A stretch of DNA of 6,615 nt, from the IMG/VR virus record IMGVR_UViG_2713896834_000003, positions 1-6,615 of that record; one strand, given 5' to 3'. The translations under genes and the position numbers were made by a program. Origin of the DNA: a virus. Taxonomy: Duplodnaviria; Heunggongvirae; Uroviricota; Caudoviricetes. Below, in pieces: positions 1 through 6,615 of this stretch; within the stretch, counting starts at the first letter, position 1; every line of letters begins with the position of its first letter. The notes under the pieces were generated by a model. The model was given only the letters and a program-made list of their open reading frames with translations, ran no database searches and was not told where the DNA came from.

Positions 1-109
1 ATTATATCGAATGTGATTACAATCGGTGGCGGCGGCACAGTTGGTGTGGCGGCCTCAGTCCGGAACAATTTGAAAACAAGAACCTCGCTTAGGCCTGTGT
101 CCATATTAC

Positions 110-574
110 GTGGGTAGGATCACTAAAGGTGTGCAGCCGATTACAAATTTTGACGCCAACCGCTACCTCGGAAAATGGTATGAAATAGCTCGCCTCGAGA
201 ACCGGTTCGAACGTGGTCTGGAACAGGTCAGCGCTACTTATGGAAAACGGAACGACGGAGGGATTCGTGTACTTAACCGTGGATACGATCCAACGAAAAA
301 TAAATGGAGCGAGAGCGAAGGTAAAGCATACTTTACTGGAGATACTAAAACTGCAGCATTGAAGGTTTCGTTTTTTGGCCCCTTCTATGGTGGCTATAAT
401 GTAATCAAACTGGATGATGAGTATAAGTATGCTCTTGTCAGTGGTCCGAACAGAGAATACCTATGGATTCTGGCAAGGACCCCAACTATTCCAGATAAAG
501 TAAAAGCAGACTATGTGCGAACCGCTCAAAAGTTGGGATTCAATGTCAATGAATTATTATGGGTTAAACAATAA
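110..574 (+). CDS. blc: Blc-family bacterial lipocalin, apparently 5'-truncated (no signal peptide, no lipobox, no ATG start)
   Basis: The 154-codon frame carries lipocalin motifs as in enterobacterial Blc (NFDANRYLGKWYEIAR, EGKAYFTG, KVSFFGPFYGGYNVI, YLWILARTP). The frame is closed by TGA at 71-73; the first possible start is GTG at 110 with no convincing Shine-Dalgarno, and there is no ATG anywhere in the frame. Stop TAA at 572-574. Confidence 0.55.
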   Translation: MGRITKGVQPITNFDANRYLGKWYEIARLENRFERGLEQVSATYGKRNDGGIRVLNRGYDPTKNKWSESEGKAYFTGDTKTAALKVSFFGPFYGGYNVIKLDDEYKYALVSGPNREYLWILARTPTIPDKVKADYVRTAQKLGFNVNELLWVKQ

Positions 575-601
575 AATCCCTACCCGAAATAATACTTATT
601 A

Positions 602-629
602 GAAAAAAACCAGCCTTTGGGGAGGCTGG
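602..629 (-). terminator. Intrinsic terminator for minus-strand transcripts downstream of Q (tR'-like); the same hairpin lies just 3' of the convergent lipocalin ORF
   Basis: Perfect 7-bp GC-rich inverted repeat CCAGCCT (610-616) / AGGCTGG (623-629) with a 6-nt loop. On the plus strand it is preceded by a 7-A run (603-609), which is a U-tract immediately after the hairpin on the minus-strand RNA. Confidence 0.55.
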
Positions 630-688
630 CTAAATCAGGAAACAAGCTGTTATATGATAATAACTACGTTGTGATTCCAACATTTAAA

Positions 689-717
689 ATGTTAGACTAA
701 TGACAATCAGACAGCAA
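689..717 (-). promoter_or_regulatory. Candidate late promoter (pR'-like) immediately downstream of Q
   Basis: On the minus strand, TTGCTG (717..712), a 17-nt spacer, then TAACAT (694..689), located between the Q stop (730) and the hairpin terminator. Position is analogous to lambda pR'/tR'. Motif match only; the -10 is weak. Confidence 0.25.
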
Positions 718-729
718 CTTTTCCTTTAA

Positions 730-1107
730 TTATTTCGAACAATCAGCATCCATCTCCAATCGGAGATCCAACACCATCAGCATACCCTCCACTACGCCCT
801 CAGCTTTCTGAAGCATCCTGCCAACCCAACAATCAGATCGCCCATGCTTACGTGCAAGCGCCATAAAAGTCATGCCGCCGACATAATAGTCCACCAATAA
901 ATCATGCAAATCGCTGTTGTTCTTTTTCAGACGGGCCATGCACCCGCAAATGATCATCGCATCATCGTCACAACATTGCGGGCGAGATTTTACTTTTGAA
1001 GGAATTAATCCCTTAAAACCGGCGGCAATGGACGACCAAGTCACATCTTCATGATTATTAGCCGCCCACGCTCCCCAACGCTCAAGAACCATCTGAATAT
1101 CACGCAT
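730..1107 (-). CDS. quuD: Late-gene antitermination protein Q (phage 82 / DLP12 QuuD type)
   Basis: Translation from ATG at 1107 ([33 protein letters not shown]..., Cys-rich [16 protein letters not shown]) matches my recollection of 82-type Q / QuuD. GGAG lies 7 nt upstream of the ATG. The track's longer form begins at a TTG five codons upstream. Position after the nin genes fits. Confidence 0.8.
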
Positions 1108-1192
1108 CAACTTACTCCACAAAAATCAGACCAGAACGCCAATCACAAGCAAAAATCAACAAAACAGTATTAGTTGATTGTTATCTCTGACT

Positions 1193-1333
1193 TCATACTC
1201 CTGCTCCTGTCAGGGTTTTGGCGTAATTCTTCAGTATTCGGTAATCGGTCAAAACAGAACCGGGGAAACGATATAAGCGCAGATGCCCCCAGCGGTGGCG
1301 AAGAAGTTCTGCCATATAAAACTCAAACATCAT
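1193..1333 (-). CDS. ylcG: Small protein YlcG-like (46 aa), between rusA and Q
   Basis: Not in the ORF track (too short). Minus-strand ATG at 1333..1331 overlaps the rusA stop (ATGA). Translation [46 protein letters not shown], stop TGA at 1195..1193. Size and position match ylcG of DLP12-type prophages; sequence identity not verifiable from memory. Confidence 0.45.
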
Positions 1334-1692
1334 TCATTCCCCATTTCGGTGATGGTCAGTTCCAGCCTCCCACCTTTGGTAACAGGCATCTTCACAACGC
1401 GGTAATCAACGACCTGAGCATCATCCAGCCAGAAACCTGCTTTAGTGAGTGCGTCAAAAGCGGCTTTTTGCAGATTATCCAGGTCACGGCGACGGCGATC
1501 CGGCATGTGGCACTCAATGCGGATTTTCACAGGCATAGCCAGGCCGATATCCAGCATTGCGTTTTTAATGATTCGGGCGACGTTATCGCGGTATGCCTGC
1601 CCCTCTGCGCTGACGTGCGTGCGCCCGCGATTATGGCGGTAATAGCGATTATTGCTCGGAGGCCAGGGTAATGTGATGTTGTAGGTATTCAC
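1330..1692 (-). CDS. rusA: Holliday junction resolvase RusA
   Basis: Residues [119 protein letters not shown] match RusA essentially end to end. Probable GTG start at 1692..1690 overlapping the ybcO stop (GTGA); the track's longer N-terminal extension is rejected. Confidence 0.9.
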
Positions 1693-1979
1693 GCCTTGAT
1701 TACCCCCTCTTTCATCCAGATAACCTGCGTTCTCGCCATACCTTCCAGCGCGCATTCTTTTGCATATGCGGCATCGACAAAATGTGTGCGGCGGTCGATT
1801 TCGTCGTGGCAGGCAGAACATGCAATGGTGGCAATCAGGTCTGGCGGTTTGGTACCGGTGCCGCACAATCCAGTCAGCCGGATATGTGCCAGTACAGACG
1901 TTTCAGGGTTGCCATTACATACGCCAGGGGTTCTTACCTGGCATTCCCGACCACGCGCTGCTTTTCTCAAATCAGCCAT
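1689..1979 (-). CDS. ybcO: DUF1364-family phage protein (YbcO-like, Cys-rich, putative zinc-binding)
   Basis: Translation from ATG at 1979 ([34 protein letters not shown]...[11 protein letters not shown]...) matches DLP12 YbcO as I recall it. AGGAGG lies 4 nt upstream. Start overlaps the ninE 3' end. Confidence 0.8.
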
Positions 1980-2142
1980 GATTCCTCCTTGCTGCCAGTC
2001 GCAACCATTTTTTATCAACCAGGCTGGCGGTATATCCGAGCAGTGTTGGTATTTCGGATGGCTTCAGCTCAGGTTTACGCTTACGACGATTTGGTACTCT
2101 GTAGATGTGTCCGTTCATGACACGAATAAGCGGTGTAGCCAT
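1972..2142 (-). CDS. ninE: NinE-family protein (56 aa)
   Basis: Hand translation of the minus strand gives [59 protein letters not shown] at 2142..2140 overlaps the ybcN stop (TAATG). Matches DLP12 NinE in length and position. Not in the ORF track. Confidence 0.7.
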   Translation of the reverse strand: MATPLIRVMNGHIYRVPNRRKRKPELKPSEIPTLLGYTASLVDKKWLRLAARRNHG

Positions 2143-2597
2143 TACGCCTCCTGCTTGTCGCGCAGCAGCTGGAACTCGCAGCTCTGCGGAATAGTCAGGT
2201 GGCAGCCAATATTCATCGCCCAGGCTTCAACCTTACACAGGAAGACATACATCTCTCCGGCATCAAGATCGGAGGTATGGCGTAACGACTGGATAGTGGT
2301 GATTTCACCGGTTACGACATCAACCAGTTCTTTGGTTTCATAACCGAGGTATGTGTGTTTGAGAGCTTCTTTTACCCATGCTGCGGTAGCGAACGATTTC
2401 CCCCTGCTGATAAGGTATTCACTGATTTCGCTGTACCACATGTGGCTGAGTGCATTCTGGGAAAGACTGCGTTTCTCACGCCACGGTTTAAGCACCATGC
2501 GAAAGCATTTTCCGTCCTCCAGATAAGGCTGGATCTGCTGGCCGATAGCGGTGAAGTTGCCGCGATGTAATTTGATGCCATCTTGTGGTAGGTTCAC
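2142..2597 (-). CDS. ybcN: NinB/Orf-family recombination protein (YbcN-like)
   Basis: 151 aa containing the NinB-type RSLSQNA motif at the same relative position as RSLDQN in lambda NinB. GTG start at 2597 with GGAGGTG 3 nt upstream. First gene of the nin-type block. Confidence 0.8.
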
Positions 2598-2787
2598 GCT
2601 TCACCTCCGCAGAGGTCAAACGCAGGATGCAAAAAATCGCAGGTGCATTTCTGCATCTGTGAAGGGAGAAGAGAGTTTGGATTGTATGTGCGCATAAACG
2701 TCCCCGTTTAGCGCAGAAGTCACCGGAGTTGTTCAAGCTCCGATGACTTTATTATTACGAATTGATTTTACAAAATCAAAAGGTATG

Positions 2788-3240
2788 TTAGTGACGCGGG
2801 TCTGTTATTATGCGAGAAGGGTTTCCGTATAAAACAAGGACCTTACTTCCTTGAGTAAATAACGGATCTTTGCCTTGAACAATGGTCATTAAATTCCCAT
2901 TCTCAGTTTCGACAACATATTCCATGCCTGTTTGTTTTGTTGCTGAAGATTCGATTGCTGCCCCGGCAATACCACCAATGACTGCACCACCAACGGCACC
3001 AACGATATTAGAACGAACTCCCCCACCAAGCGCAGAACCAGCGGTTGCCCCCACGGCAGCCCCAGCAGTCCCGCCTAACGCGGAAGTCCCACTGATATCA
3101 ACCCCCCTGGCACTAATAACTGTACCAGCGATAGTTCGATTAACCATGCCCACAGAGCCAACAGAATAACTATTTGGCGATATATTTTGTGCGCATCCAA
3201 CCAACACTAAGAGTGGAGCAATTACGAATAATCGCTTCAT
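2788..3240 (-). CDS. Outer-membrane lipoprotein, SlyB/Pcp-like with glycine-zipper domain
   Basis: Signal peptide plus lipobox (MKRLFVIAPLLVLVG|C, Ala at +2), then a long Gly/Ala zipper (ALGGTAGAAVGATAGSALGGG...VGAVGGAVIGGIAGAAI), then a C-terminal segment (GMEYVVETENGNLMTIVQGKDPLFTQGSKVLVLYGNP) resembling the SlyB C-terminus. Start ATG overlaps the upstream gene's stop (ATGA). Confidence 0.7.
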   Translation of the reverse strand: MKRLFVIAPLLVLVGCAQNISPNSYSVGSVGMVNRTIAGTVISARGVDISGTSALGGTAGAAVGATAGSALGGGVRSNIVGAVGGAVIGGIAGAAIESSATKQTGMEYVVETENGNLMTIVQGKDPLFTQGSKVLVLYGNPSRIITDPRH

Positions 3241-3797
3241 TTAGCTACCCTAACAGGAAACATTGGACGAGAAAGATCAACACTTTCTAATGCTTGCAAG
3301 AACTGCGTTATGTTGTTTTGCACCGCGCGATTAACAGATTCGCGTGCTCGAACAATACCGTAGAATGCGTAACTGGCTGGAACAGTACCGGTAGACTCAA
3401 TATCCTGCGTATATATAATATCACCATTCGCACGGTTGATTATTTCATACCTTGCAATTGCTTTAGTTGTCATTGAAACACCAAAAGCAGGAACGTCAAG
3501 AGCCAACACTTTAACATTTAAGCTAACCGTATTTGGTGAACTATCACGAAAAATAGTCATTCGGTCGAGTGCTTCCTGCAAAGATTCACGCCAAATTGGA
3601 GTTATAGCCTCCATACCAGCAGTGATATCCCCTTTCTGCTCATCTGGACGAGCAAGTGATACCGTTAATGACTTAATTTCAGCATCTATTTTTTTCTGGC
3701 TAACTCCCACGTTAGGTGTTGAAAAATTCAATGGTGGCACACTAGCGCAACCTGTTAAAGAACCAATAATCATGGCTAATAATATTATCTTCTTCAT
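3237..3797 (-). CDS. Lipoprotein of unknown family (186 aa), first gene of the two-gene cargo operon
   Basis: Signal peptide plus canonical lipobox (MKKIILLAMIIGSLTG|C, Ala at +2, so predicted to be sorted to the outer membrane). AAGG-type SD 6 nt upstream of ATG 3797. Translationally coupled to the downstream SlyB-like gene. I do not recognise a family. Confidence 0.7.
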   Translation of the reverse strand: MKKIILLAMIIGSLTGCASVPPLNFSTPNVGVSQKKIDAEIKSLTVSLARPDEQKGDITAGMEAITPIWRESLQEALDRMTIFRDSSPNTVSLNVKVLALDVPAFGVSMTTKAIARYEIINRANGDIIYTQDIESTGTVPASYAFYGIVRARESVNRAVQNNITQFLQALESVDLSRPMFPVRVAK

Positions 3798-3959
3798 AAA
3801 TTTACCTTATTGTTATAACCAAAGGAATTATAAAGTAAAAAAGTTCACTATCACTAGCCATTAACGACATCAATTTCAGAGAAACATGGTACTCATTTCC
3901 ACAAATTTGACACAAGTCATTTTCATCTACATATTCCATCATACTTGATGCATATGTTA

Positions 3960-3988
3960 TTGAAGCCTCTATCCTATCCGTTCATAAT
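3960..3988 (+). promoter_or_regulatory. Candidate sigma70 promoter for the small membrane ORF
   Basis: TTGAAG (3960-3965), 17-nt spacer, CATAAT (3983-3988), in the AT-rich divergent intergenic region, about 65 nt upstream of ATG 4054. Motif match only. Confidence 0.3.
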
Positions 3989-4053
3989 AGCAATAGTTAC
4001 CCGGGTGATAGTACCTCTATGATTACTCGTCTTTCTGATTGATTGGATTAAAT

Positions 4054-4245
4054 ATGCGCGCCAAAATTTATCAACTTTCGTTATGGATATTTATTTCGTT
4101 TCTAGCGATCTATGCCTTTATTATCTATAAAGGTTCTTATATTGGAGTAGCATTGCATCAAATTGCTTGGATCATCATTATTGCCTCTGGCTTGATTGCT
4201 AGGCTAACTAAACCAAAGCAAAAACCAATTTCGTCCAATAATTAG
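4054..4245 (+). CDS. Small hydrophobic protein (63 aa), two predicted transmembrane helices and a basic C-terminal tail; function unknown
   Basis: Translation MRAKIYQLSLWIFISFLAIYAFIIYKGSYIGVALHQIAWIIIIASGLIARLTKPKQKPISSNN. Very AT-rich and divergent from the lipoprotein operon. Weak RBS. The track starts it at an upstream TTG (4039); ATG 4054 is preferred. Confidence 0.4.
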   Translation: MRAKIYQLSLWIFISFLAIYAFIIYKGSYIGVALHQIAWIIIIASGLIARLTKPKQKPISSNN

Positions 4246-4281
4246 ACATGTATTAAAAAATGATATTTTTATGTACATAGT

Positions 4282-4575
4282 CTATTGAAAATTGCCGCGA
4301 TAAAATGCCAACACCCGCTTCATCGCGGCACTCTGGCGACACTCCTTGAAAATCAGATTCGTGCTCACCTTTCCTTCCCGTTCTTCCCTGGTAGCGAACC
4401 GGTAATACACCGTTCGCCAGACCTTACCATCAATAACTAAGATTCCTGTCCGCGCCATTTTAGCCGCAGCCTGGTTTATGCTGGTTACTGTTGCGCCTGT
4501 TACCGCAGCAACGTCCTGCGCACAGAAGCTCTTATGCGTCCCCAGGTAATGAATAATTGCTTCTTTTCCCGTCAT
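4282..4575 (-). CDS. ren: Ren protein (Rex exclusion resistance), lambda-like
   Basis: 97 aa, MTGKEAIIHYLGTHKSFCAQDVAAVTGATVTSINQAAAKMARTG...WRTVYYRFATREEREGK..., matching lambda Ren as I recall it. ATG overlaps the P stop (ATGA). Confidence 0.9.
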   Translation of the reverse strand: MTGKEAIIHYLGTHKSFCAQDVAAVTGATVTSINQAAAKMARTGILVIDGKVWRTVYYRFATREEREGKVSTNLIFKECRQSAAMKRVLAFYRGNFQ

Positions 4576-5273
4576 ACACTGGCTCCTTTCAGTCCGAACT
4601 TAGCTTTGATTTCTGCAATCTTCGCCAGAGCCTGTGCACGATTTAGAGGTCTACCGCCCATGACAGGAAGTTGTTTTACTGGTTCAGGGATCGCCTCACC
4701 ACGGTTAATTCTCGCAGTCATATGGACAAGCTCATCTGCGGCCTTACGGCGTAATTCCGCATCAGTAAGCGCATTGGCCCGCATGTTCTGATACAGGTTG
4801 GTAACCAGCCAGTAGTGCGCGTTTGATTTCCACGGATAAGACTCCGCATCCGGATACAGGCCTCGCTTCCGGCAATACTCGTAAACCATATCAACCAGCT
4901 CGCTGACGTTTGGCAGTCCGGCGATAACGGATGCTTCTTCCCGGCACCATGCAACAAACTGCCCGGGTGATGGCAGGAATGGTCGATTCTGCCGACGGGC
5001 TACGCGCATTCCAGCGTTAACCTGTTCCATTGTGGTGATCCCGTTTTCCCGAAAAGCCAGCACCCACTGGCGGCGGATTTCGTTCAGTTCGTTCTGGTCC
5101 CGGTTAGCCAGGCTCGCTGGGAAAGTTGCCAGTAACTGGCTGAATACACCGTTGATTATCTGCGCTACCTGCTGTACCTGCGGCTTTTCGTCGTACTGTT
5201 CCGGCATGTTATTGGCGATCCGGCACATCTGCTCACGGTCAAAGTTAACCATCTGTGCGGCGATGTTTTTCAT
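4572..5273 (-). CDS. P: Replication protein P (DnaB helicase loader), lambda-type
   Basis: 233 aa, matching my recollection of lambda P along its whole length (MKNIAAQMVNFDREQM...AKFGLKGASV). ATG overlaps the O stop (ATGA). Confidence 0.95.
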   Translation of the reverse strand: MKNIAAQMVNFDREQMCRIANNMPEQYDEKPQVQQVAQIINGVFSQLLATFPASLANRDQNELNEIRRQWVLAFRENGITTMEQVNAGMRVARRQNRPFLPSPGQFVAWCREEASVIAGLPNVSELVDMVYEYCRKRGLYPDAESYPWKSNAHYWLVTNLYQNMRANALTDAELRRKAADELVHMTARINRGEAIPEPVKQLPVMGGRPLNRAQALAKIAEIKAKFGLKGASV

Positions 5274-6199
5274 AAATCCACCCCGTAAATCCAGTCAGTG
5301 TTCGTCAGGTCGAGTTTTGGTTTGCCGGCTGTCACGCCAGCCTGTTGCTTGTTTCGGTTGATTTCGAGCTGGGTCCACTTGTCGCGGAGTTTGGCCGGAC
5401 TCAGCACGTTACCGGACCAGAAGTTGTCCTGGCAGGCCCAGCGGAACAGTACACACATGTCGCGGTGGTTACGTCCATCACGTTCACGCATCAGACGGAT
5501 ATCGTTAGCCCACCCTGCAAAATTCGGTTTTCTGGCTGATGGCGCGATGGTCTTCACCATGTCAAACATCCACTCTGCGGCGGTCAGGTCTTCTGCTGTC
5601 CCCCACTTGCTGCCGTTCTGAATCGCAGCATCCGCTTTCACCACAGGAAGGTCGTTTTCTGGCAGGTCAGAGGATTCGCCAGAATTCTCGGACGAATAAG
5701 GTTTTATATTGTCTTTTGTTAGTTTGTCTTTTGTGTTTACCTGATTCGGGTAAGTGCCTTTACCTGATTTGGGTAAACTTTTCTTACCTGATTCAGGTAA
5801 ATTTACCTCTTTCAGGTAAACTTTATTTTTCTTACCTGATTCGGGTAATGTTGACCATTCACTGACCACATTATTAATGCCTATATTCCGCCCGCTCTGA
5901 ATAAAAATCCCACGCTTTACCAGAACACTTTTTGCAGCAGAACACTTGTGCGGCAATATCCCGGTCAACTCGGAAAGTTGCTCGTTGCTCACCCAATCCA
6001 GTTTTTTATTAAAGCCATATGTTTTGCGCATGACAGCCAGGAAGACCAGAAGCTGGTGCTGTGTTAATCCGGCCAGCATTACAGCTTCCAGCAACTCATT
6101 TGCAATGCGCGTATAACCATCATCGAGATCTGCCACGCGCGGCTCCTTTTGTGCCGCATCCGGCACTGGAAAATTGAATATCTCAGCAGTGTTTGCCAT
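5270..6199 (-). CDS. O: Replication initiator O (origin-binding), lambdoid
   Basis: From ATG 6199 (GGGAGG upstream) the N-terminus MANTAEIFNFP parallels lambda O MTNTAKILNFG. The C-terminal region (WANDIRLMRERDGRNHRDMCVLFRWACQDNFWSGNVLSPAKLRDKWTQLEINRNKQQAGVTAGKPKLDLTNTDWIYGVDL) closely matches my recollection of lambda O. The track's longer ORF begins at an in-frame ATG at 6289 (alternative start). Confidence 0.9.
   Translation of the reverse strand: MANTAEIFNFPVPDAAQKEPRVADLDDGYTRIANELLEAVMLAGLTQHQLLVFLAVMRKTYGFNKKLDWVSNEQLSELTGILPHKCSAAKSVLVKRGIFIQSGRNIGINNVVSEWSTLPESGKKNKVYLKEVNLPESGKKSLPKSGKGTYPNQVNTKDKLTKDNIKPYSSENSGESSDLPENDLPVVKADAAIQNGSKWGTAEDLTAAEWMFDMVKTIAPSARKPNFAGWANDIRLMRERDGRNHRDMCVLFRWACQDNFWSGNVLSPAKLRDKWTQLEINRNKQQAGVTAGKPKLDLTNTDWIYGVDL
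5690..5848 (-). other. Replication origin (ori) embedded in the O gene: iteron array plus adjacent AT-rich region
   Basis: Five iterons at 5737-5848 followed, in the direction of O transcription, by an AT-rich stretch (about 5690-5736). This is the same architecture as lambda ori inside O. Confidence 0.65.
5737..5848. repeat. Five 17-bp palindromic iterons (consensus TTACCTGATTCGGGTAA), putative O-binding sites
   Basis: Direct repeats at 5737-5753 (TTACCTGATTCGGGTAA), 5760-5776 (TTACCTGATTTGGGTAA), 5784-5800 (TTACCTGATTCAGGTAA, a perfect palindrome), 5803-5819 (TTACCTCTTTCAGGTAA) and 5832-5848 (TTACCTGATTCGGGTAA). Confidence 0.8.
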
Positions 6200-6285
6200 A
6201 ATTCCTCCCGCAATGAGTGTGTTACGATTTGCACCTGAAAGTCGGTTCTGTTCCAGCAGACCGGCTTTCGCCATTTCTGAACCTG

Positions 6286-6615
6286 TCATATCGCCCCCAG
6301 CATGGTAGTAACCATCGCCATCAATGGACCAGCCAGATCTGGGTCCACACGAAACATCGACACAATACCTTCACTAATTTCCTTCAGTTTCTGGTGGCGT
6401 GGTGCGTTGAGAATGACAGCCTGTTTTGCCTCACTGAGTTCCTTTTCCATTTCAGCCAACCTAGCCATGAAGCTATCCTGCTCAACCAGGTAACCGCGAT
6501 ATTCCAGCGGTAGTACCGCCAGAATTGCCGGGGTCAGTTCACGCACGTTATTTCGGTATTTTTCAGAATCGAATTTGTTATCGAGGAAGCGGAACAGCTT
6601 CTGGCGTGCACGGCT
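6286..6615 (-). CDS. Hypothetical protein, C-terminal part only (5' end lies beyond the window); occupies the position upstream of O
   Basis: The minus-strand frame is open from the window edge (…SRARQKLFRFLDNKFDSEKYRNNVRELTPAILAVLPLEYRGYLVEQDSFMARLAEMEKELSEAKQ…TMLGAI) to TGA at 6288..6286. It does not resemble lambda cII. Its stop overlaps an ATG in the O frame. Confidence 0.5.
   Translation of the reverse strand, partial: SRARQKLFRFLDNKFDSEKYRNNVRELTPAILAVLPLEYRGYLVEQDSFMARLAEMEKELSEAKQAVILNAPRHQKLKEISEGIVSMFRVDPDLAGPLMAMVTTMLGAI

Follow-up and report, generated by a model that had tools for sequence, protein, structure and literature searches.

The stretch of DNA analysed here (the window) comprises the 6,615 nucleotides at positions 1 to 6,615 of the IMG/VR virus record IMGVR_UViG_2713896834_000003 and is the early-right arm of a lambda-like Escherichia coli prophage with its genes on the minus strand, an arrangement that recurs at 99.7–100% identity in E. 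coli chromosomes and in phage PhiR30_1 (PV340558). Within it, a gap of 484 bp (3798–4281) extends from the ATG of a lipoprotein gene (3797) to the stop codon of ren (4282) and harbours, on the plus strand, a small gene at 4054–4245 of 63 codons plus stop, the product of which, MRAKIYQLSLWIFISFLAIYAFIIYKGSYIGVALHQIAWIIIIASGLIARLTKPKQKPISSNN, is predicted to be a two-helix membrane hairpin protein. The feature is defined by the list of open reading frames (ORFs), by homologues, by a codon-bias test and by the predicted helices. It is divergent from the lipoprotein operon and convergent with ren (4282–4575, minus strand), the last gene of the replication module, the product of which is annotated as protein ren or exclusion protein Ren. 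With a GC content of 0.31–0.36 in 200-nucleotide windows, the gap holds the minimum for the whole window, compared with 0.50–0.58 in ren, P and O and about 0.5 in the flanks; the next-lowest values are 0.34 at 501–700 and 0.36 at 5701–5900. An earlier reading of the letters by themselves (the original prediction) had described this gap as the most AT-rich part of the window, with a divergently oriented frame for a 63-residue protein ending in a basic tail, and on all of these points it was accurate.

Coding evidence for the 63-codon frame

The frame runs from the ATG at 4054 to the TAG at 4243–4245 and closes with the basic C-terminal end RLTKPKQKPISSNN. The original prediction had allowed that it might be spurious, a legitimate worry on the window by itself: 9% of dinucleotide-preserving shuffles of the 484 bp contain an ATG-initiated ORF of 63 codons or more (p ~0.09), T-rich DNA translates to hydrophobic residues in any case, and RefSeq leaves the ORF without annotation. 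Indeed, gene and artefact could not be told apart from the window alone because the promoter motif and the ORF length both lie within chance, and it is the comparative evidence only that removes the doubt.

Conservation within E. coli was rejected as a test of coding. The 484 bp occur in 280 of 5,426 complete E. coli genomes (~5%), and in 279 of those 280 they are at least 99% identical, too alike to be informative; the exact protein is encoded on at least 1,000 contigs. Across 25–26 related loci there is one substitution in the ORF compared with five in the 256 bp upstream, and from about 2700 to 4300 variable sites are very few, in contrast to the flanks, where they are numerous. The ORF variants that do exist in E. 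coli are mostly conservative single substitutions, together with one in-frame loss of a codon and rare alterations of the C-terminus, namely a frameshift at an A-run near the 3' end (P0135), a replaced C-terminus (P0004) and a truncation (P0005).

More distant members were needed and were not readily found. A close-homologue, word-indexed protein search returned E. coli copies only, at 86–98% identity with the lower values reflecting truncated or frameshifted variants, and for that reason an exhaustive HMMER search was required to reveal the family. This recovered three distant relatives, a profile search recovered two more, and still more loci came from scanning viral, genome and metagenome contigs. 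These homologues share 33–52% protein identity with the window protein and are 59–63 amino acids long, with the exception of one 75-residue gene call that starts upstream of the shared methionine. All of their N-termini read MR(A/V/T)K or MQAK, and this conserved beginning is why we place the start at ATG 4054 rather than at TTG 4039. Residues Y29, G31, V32 and L34 are common to the homologues, and H35, Q36 and W39 are present in most.

It is at the level of DNA that the coding signal emerges. The homologues are 65–73% similar to the window, with the similarity confined to the ORF, and the differences between homologues fall overwhelmingly at third codon positions (3/2/21, 4/3/26 and 7/2/16 at positions one, two and three in three comparisons). 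The corresponding ratio of nonsynonymous to synonymous differences per site (pN/pS) is 0.07–0.23 in the ORF frame, with Fisher p values of 4e-7 to 3.5e-13, whereas the values are 0.8–3.8 in both remaining plus-strand frames and in two of the three on the minus strand; the third antisense frame, which shares the wobble positions, shows a weaker echo of the constraint and is not open in the window. The third-position excess and the low pN/pS in this one frame indicate that it is translated and under purifying selection, and synonymous-biased variation in related sequences was the very sign that the original prediction had proposed to look for. A chance open frame in AT-rich, T-rich DNA would not be expected to keep its length, start and reading frame in homologues of 33–52% identity whose DNA can barely be aligned, and this explanation is refuted by a synonymous excess that is both frame-specific and highly significant; we give it practically no weight. 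Thus, judged by its pattern of substitution, 4054–4245 is almost certainly a real protein-coding gene. A second candidate, an ORF of 101–120 codons that overlaps the small gene in another frame at some of the homologous loci (those linked to hot, described below), was rejected as its pN/pS in that frame exceeds 1.

The gene is poorly served by existing annotation. Among the matches listed for the 280 carrying E. coli genomes, RefSeq has no gene under the ORF match, while GenBank, UniRef and the PhiR30_1 record still carry the small protein as hypothetical, and every source name for the family is either "hypothetical" or "uncharacterized". In one carrier (L001, NZ_CP033401.1) the locus tags skip RS10450, between EDM51_RS10445 and RS10455, exactly at the small gene, which suggests an earlier gene model that was dropped from RefSeq. 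The window protein has no family match in Pfam, NCBIfam, PHROG or PADLOC; the weak match of one homologue (P0130) to the PADLOC "4TM effector" model (E = 2e-4) was judged to be compositional. Searches of Rfam over 3600–4500 gave sub-threshold noise only, Foldseek with the AlphaFold model found no match among viral models and the Protein Data Bank, and nothing relevant was found in the literature under the name of the phage record or on a backwards membrane gene in the nin region. The family, whose proteins of some 60 residues are found in Enterobacteriaceae, has no name, domain model or studied member.

A reversed slot in the nin region

Prophage members of the family come from Klebsiella pneumoniae, a Klebsiella sp., an Enterobacter genome bin, seven IMG/VR contigs and several metagenome contigs. 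Wherever a prophage contig is long enough to show the neighbours, the gene occupies the same nin-region slot, flanked on one side by the replication genes (O together with either P or a DnaC-like loader, or else DnaB) and on the other by a DUF1367/NinB/YbcO/RusA/Q set, and is the sole gene on its strand. The divergent neighbour in those loci is hot, a homologue of the theta subunit of DNA polymerase III, situated 56–72 bp away (PF06440, E = 3e-34), while the convergent neighbour differs from locus to locus. In the Klebsiella and Enterobacter prophages (L032, L038–L048) the small gene always stands head-to-head with hot and the two have diverged in parallel; from these sequences the small gene and hot seem to travel as one unit. 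The hot-linked form is also present in two of the 5,426 E. coli genomes, where RefSeq annotates only the theta homologue. The window has either lost hot or never had it. A candidate remnant upstream of the window ORF, CGTTCATAAT with its flanks, resembles the start of hot by eye only, and was rejected after neither tblastn with five hot proteins nor local DNA alignment against shuffles gave a significant result.

Two members look chromosomal. One (L037) adjoins an MlaE/ABC transporter pair, and the other (L053), the most distant member at 33% identity, lies beside pspF and a Metallophos phosphatase, with the small gene on the opposite strand from the adjoining phosphatase (L053 991–2047). The phosphatase of the lambda nin region belongs to this enzyme family too; if the two are connected in this way, L053 may be what is left of a prophage and not a genuine chromosomal member.

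As the strand of the small gene opposes that of its neighbours, a promoter of its own is a logical necessity. A promoter-like element, TTGAAG-17-CATAAT, is predicted on the plus strand at 3960–3988, 66 nt upstream of the ATG and with 9 of 12 consensus matches, and an alternative, TTGACA-17-CATATT with 10 of 12, at 3907–3935. The first of these had been singled out by the original prediction and is indeed present, but promoter-like sites are no commoner here than expected by chance. One E. coli variant (N1420) changes CATAAT to CACAAT, and position 3926, in the spacer of the alternative site, is altered from T to C in 14 of 25 loci. Two homologous loci (L041 and L042) have TTTGCA-17-CATAAT at 63 nt from the ATG, compared with 66 nt in the window, although their upstream regions cannot be significantly aligned with it. 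A third promoter-like element, GTGATA-16-TATAAT on the minus strand (3827–3854), faces the lipoprotein pair from 30 nt upstream of ATG 3797 and belongs to that neighbouring module. No LexA box was found near the region, the only feature of the kind being a weak inverted repeat (3922–3934/3952–3964). A Shine–Dalgarno-like GGA or GAG precedes the start by 6–9 nt in all but one family member.

At the other end of the gene, an imperfect hairpin with a 17-pair stem (4243–4284, inverted repeat I1) exactly bridges the two convergent stop codons of the small gene and ren, which are separated by 36 nt, making it a candidate end for transcripts arriving from both directions. The folding energies for the plus and minus strands are -11.3 and -10.3 kcal/mol, with z values of -2.2 and -2.4, respectively. 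A hairpin also directly follows the stop in L032, L038, L039, L041 and L047 (z -1.9 to -4.2), is G+C-rich in most of these copies and, in L041, is recognised by the terminator scan on either strand; in the sixth homologue folded, the chromosomal-looking L037, it is non-significant (z = -1.4). From these features we infer that the gene forms a small transcription unit with start signals of its own.

Predicted topology and possible roles

AlphaFold modelling from a six-sequence alignment yields helices at residues 2–26 and 31–52 joined by a four-residue turn, with a mean predicted local distance difference test score (pLDDT) of 72. Hydropathy peaks at about residues 8–25 and 30–52 agree with the model, and bear out the two hydrophobic helices and basic tail that had been read from the translation. 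Basic residues are restricted to the N-terminus (R2, K4), the turn (K26) and the tail (R50, K53, K55, K57). Under the positive-inside rule of membrane protein topology, the placement of basic residues at the ends points to an N-in/C-in hairpin with a minimal periplasmic turn. Thus, the model makes it very probable that the product is a membrane hairpin with two transmembrane helices and both basic ends (MRAK..., ...RLTKPKQK...) in the cytoplasm. Helix 2 contains the conserved polar residues H35, Q36 and W39, and an H35-x3-W39 motif (window 4156–4170, codons 35–39) is found in five of six subgroups, the window included. The spacing resembles the pore motif of the influenza M2 proton channel. 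Conservation of the motif across the family, as an M2-type channel would call for, was not found: in the hot-linked P0130 subgroup the histidine and tryptophan are replaced by asparagine and isoleucine while pN/pS stays at 0.07–0.23, and because the motif is lost in a subgroup that is itself strongly constrained it cannot define the family.

In a lambda lysogen the early-right promoter is kept off by the prophage repressor. The genes around the small gene would be read from that repressed promoter, whereas the small gene, facing the other way and using a promoter of its own, would be transcribed in the quiescent lysogen; after prophage induction, anti-terminated early transcription converging on the gene would overrun it and turn its expression down. 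Because the neighbours use the early-right promoter and the gene is reversed, expression specific to the lysogen and opposed upon induction is, in our judgement, probable. The small protein would then act at the inner membrane of the lysogen, where our first choice of role is superinfection exclusion, that is, hindering the DNA entry of incoming phages in the manner of HK97 gp15, with modulation of a host membrane protein a close second. Exclusion is proposed by analogy with gp15; it is speculative, and we regard it as possible rather than probable. It is nonetheless the most plausible of the three functional ideas offered by the original prediction, the others being a type I toxin and a holin-like protein. 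Taken as a whole, our best explanation, put forward tentatively, is a stand-alone, lysogen-expressed inner-membrane hairpin protein that may be an exclusion factor.

Several known systems frame this proposal. In phage lambda, bor and lom are cargo genes expressed in the lysogen, and bor runs counter to the lytic operon around it; its product, encoded in the late region, is an outer-membrane lipoprotein with a role in serum resistance. The small gene is similar to bor in being a stand-alone gene set backwards in a lytic operon, with only its own promoter to rely on and an envelope product, but differs in its predicted two-helix inner-membrane hairpin, its early-right location and the lack of homology. 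T4 Imm (~83 aa) and P22 SieA are inner-membrane proteins that block the injection of phage DNA and are not known to do anything else. The mechanism proposed here would be of the same kind, an inner-membrane block of incoming DNA; in contrast, there is no sequence or fold match, Imm is the product of a virulent phage and SieA is a far bigger protein. SieA features in PMC10883804.

The closest comparison is with HK97 gp15, which PMC3594210 describes as a small, prophage-expressed inner-membrane superinfection-exclusion protein of the YebO family with chromosomal relatives in Enterobacteriaceae, and as the first described moron, presumed to be expressed from the repressed prophage. Like gp15, the window protein is a small prophage membrane protein encoded on an inserted block of different composition, with relatives that look chromosomal (L037, L053). 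Unlike gp15, it has no Pfam or PHROG match and is encoded in the nin region in an orientation counter to that of the operon, and exclusion, shown for gp15, is conjectured for it. By the definition of Juhala et al. (2000), as summarised in PMC3594210, a moron is extra DNA of odd composition with its own promoter and terminator. The DNA here is indeed extra relative to related phages, and its base composition differs from that of the surrounding genes.

The signals for transcription are less clear-cut, and they are among the observations that weigh against our explanation. Upstream of the gene are two plus-strand sigma-70-like sites, at a count expected by chance (three promoter-like sites in all, compared with 3.4 ± 1.9 in shuffles), and the similarly placed site of L041 and L042 has no consensus promoter-like counterpart in L032. 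The window and five of the six homologues folded have a hairpin after the stop, but the window copy is built of A+T only and the terminator scan makes no call there. The ribosome-binding signal is weak, at -2.7 to -5.5 kcal/mol compared with -4 to -11 for neighbouring genes. The family is also rare, with one occurrence in 50,697 phage records and one in 185,579 species-representative genomes, and owing to this rarity there is no pattern of co-occurrence that points to a function. Family libraries, PADLOC and the fold search revealed no similarity to a known exclusion or defence protein. Finally, exclusion is argued purely by analogy and is speculative, and expression is deduced from the layout of the genes.

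The alternative that survives best is a lysogen-expressed protein that tunes a host membrane protein (for example a transporter, a sensor kinase or part of the envelope-stress machinery) and plays no part in exclusion. The E. coli small proteins MgrB, AcrZ and MgtS tune host membrane proteins in this way. The anatomy would be the same constrained two-helix hairpin, the polar H35, Q36 and W39 in helix 2 would suit contact with a partner helix, and the members that do not look like prophage genes adjoin the MlaE/ABC pair (L037) or pspF and the Metallophos phosphatase (L053). However, there are just two such contexts, on short contigs and with no shared neighbour, most members reside in prophages and no partner can be named, and we consider this role somewhat unlikely.

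We hold a toxin to be less likely again. Here the product would be a type I toxin-like or abortive-infection peptide that damages or depolarises the inner membrane and is checked by antisense or convergent transcription, possibly through an M2-like HxxxW pore. Type I toxins such as Hok, TisB, Ldr and ZorO usually have one helix and fewer than 60 residues and are paired with a dedicated antisense small RNA. The window protein has in common with them that it is small, very hydrophobic, membrane-directed, weakly signalled for translation and missed by annotation, as such toxins often are, and its gene lies antisense to a strong inducible transcript; the H35-x3-W39 of helix 2, present in five of six subgroups, would provide the pore. 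In contrast to type I toxins, it has two helices, and no sign of an antitoxin RNA was obtained: consensus scans, which may miss a weak promoter, turned up no promoter-like site on the minus strand overlapping the gene or its leader, whether in the window or in L032, L041 and L042, and Rfam gave no match. Moreover, the early-right antisense transcript is off in the lysogen, leaving a toxin unopposed precisely when the cell must stay healthy, and the pore residues are dispensable, being N and I in the constrained P0130 subgroup. A more elaborate version, in which an HxxxW membrane-permeabilising peptide has its dose set by collision with the early-right transcript and serves as an abortive-infection or exclusion switch with no dedicated antitoxin, is very unlikely; if true, such a peptide would read the transcriptional state of the prophage.

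A lytic-cycle membrane protein (a class II holin, antiholin or lysis-timing factor) is highly improbable: the two transmembrane helices, the charged, basic C-terminal tail, the length of some 60–70 residues and the predicted N-in/C-in topology do recall class II holins such as pinholin S21 (~70 aa), for which a possible second start five codons upstream (TTG 4039) would be apt, but that start lacks a ribosome-binding signal (+0.6 kcal/mol) and is not conserved, no holin family matches and there is no homology to S21, and the gene, situated between ren and the nin genes, faces against both early and late transcription and is far from the lysis genes rather than beside an endolysin in a lysis cassette, while canonical, bona fide holins are encoded downstream of Q in PhiR30_1 and L032. 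Position and strand therefore contradict the holin-like idea that had been entertained.

A lysogen-expressed hairpin protein would not be surprising in kind, since small membrane proteins expressed in lysogens and backward cargo genes are both well known, and nothing so far points to a new mechanism. What the analysis does offer is a correction to annotation, namely a small gene in about 5% of complete E. coli genomes; a nin region in which a reversed position for such a gene is conserved; and a well-defined, testable candidate, suited to exclusion or defence screens, to join the few small membrane proteins of prophages that might shield the lysogen. One carrier, AMA1167 (PMC5794949), belongs to the ST410 high-risk lineage (PMC6052333).

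The inserted block and neighbouring modules

The small gene is part of an inserted block (about 2783 to 4306) with genes on both strands, comprising a lipoprotein pair, the 484-bp stretch and the last 25 nt of ren. The block is absent from most other E. coli lambda-like prophages and is carried by 276–280 genomes; K-12 is among the approximately 3,000 E. coli genomes with backbone homology, which breaks off at about 2782 and is picked up again at 4307. The right junction falls inside ren, where homology to the ren genes of other lambda-like phages gives out at 4307 with 25 nt left to the stop codon, and the last eight Ren residues here (AFYRGNFQ) accordingly derive from the inserted block. A weak Pfam DUF977 match is confined to this tail.

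The lipoprotein pair (2788–3797, minus strand) consists of two overlapping genes, 3797–3237 for a YajG-like protein of 186 residues and 3240–2788 for a glycine-zipper protein of 150 residues. Hundreds of proteins in Proteobacteria are related to the YajG-like lipoprotein, which many database entries name "UDP-N-acetylglucosamine acyltransferase", a name that nothing here supports. The pair is chromosomal in Klebsiella oxytoca, and in two other prophage types it is located just after the tape-measure gene, preceding the minor-tail gene in L009 and L010. Its DNA homology elsewhere (L006–L010) is confined to the two ORFs, beginning at the lipoprotein ATG or 36 nt into the first gene, ending no later than the second stop and including none of the upstream 484 bp; with this distribution the pair behaves as a mobile two-gene cassette. 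As the lipoprotein pair and the small gene each occur without the other, the block is a mosaic of at least two modules. The shared regulation that the original prediction had envisaged for the small gene and the lipoprotein operon is not supported by this pattern, given that the pair is found elsewhere without the 484 bp and the small gene elsewhere with hot and without lipoproteins; on these distributions the two are independent modules that recombination has made neighbours by accident. A 46-codon minus-strand ORF (3942–3802) that ends 4 nt before the lipoprotein ATG was rejected as a further gene: no family matches it, and at 3926 a common polymorphism alters the second position of its sixth codon; we treat it as probably non-coding.

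The remainder of the window follows the lambda plan. Upstream of ren in the direction of transcription are O (6289–5270) and P (5273–4572), both on the minus strand. Inside O, at about 5740–5850, five copies of a unit close to ttacctgattcgggtaa coincide with the local dip in GC to 0.36, and we take these repeat units to be the iterons of the replication origin. Between the lipoprotein pair and Q (1122–730, minus strand) lie ninB/ybcN, ninE, ybcO, rusA and ylcG, all on the minus strand, and a RefSeq hypothetical protein of 33 residues (2594–2695, minus strand) overlaps the start of ninB/ybcN in the polymorphic backbone, outside the inserted block. Elsewhere in the same prophage, outside the window (L001 9343–10701), a HipA-family kinase gene followed by a DUF3037 gene adjoins the S24 repressor gene, and the two may constitute a kinase-type toxin or defence pair. 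Downstream of Q and facing the opposite way is a Blc-like lipocalin gene (110–574, plus strand), at the spot of which the near-identical PhiR30_1 has a gene for an OmpD/NmpC-type porin (L002 677–1835), so that this site looks like a second cargo slot with alternative contents.

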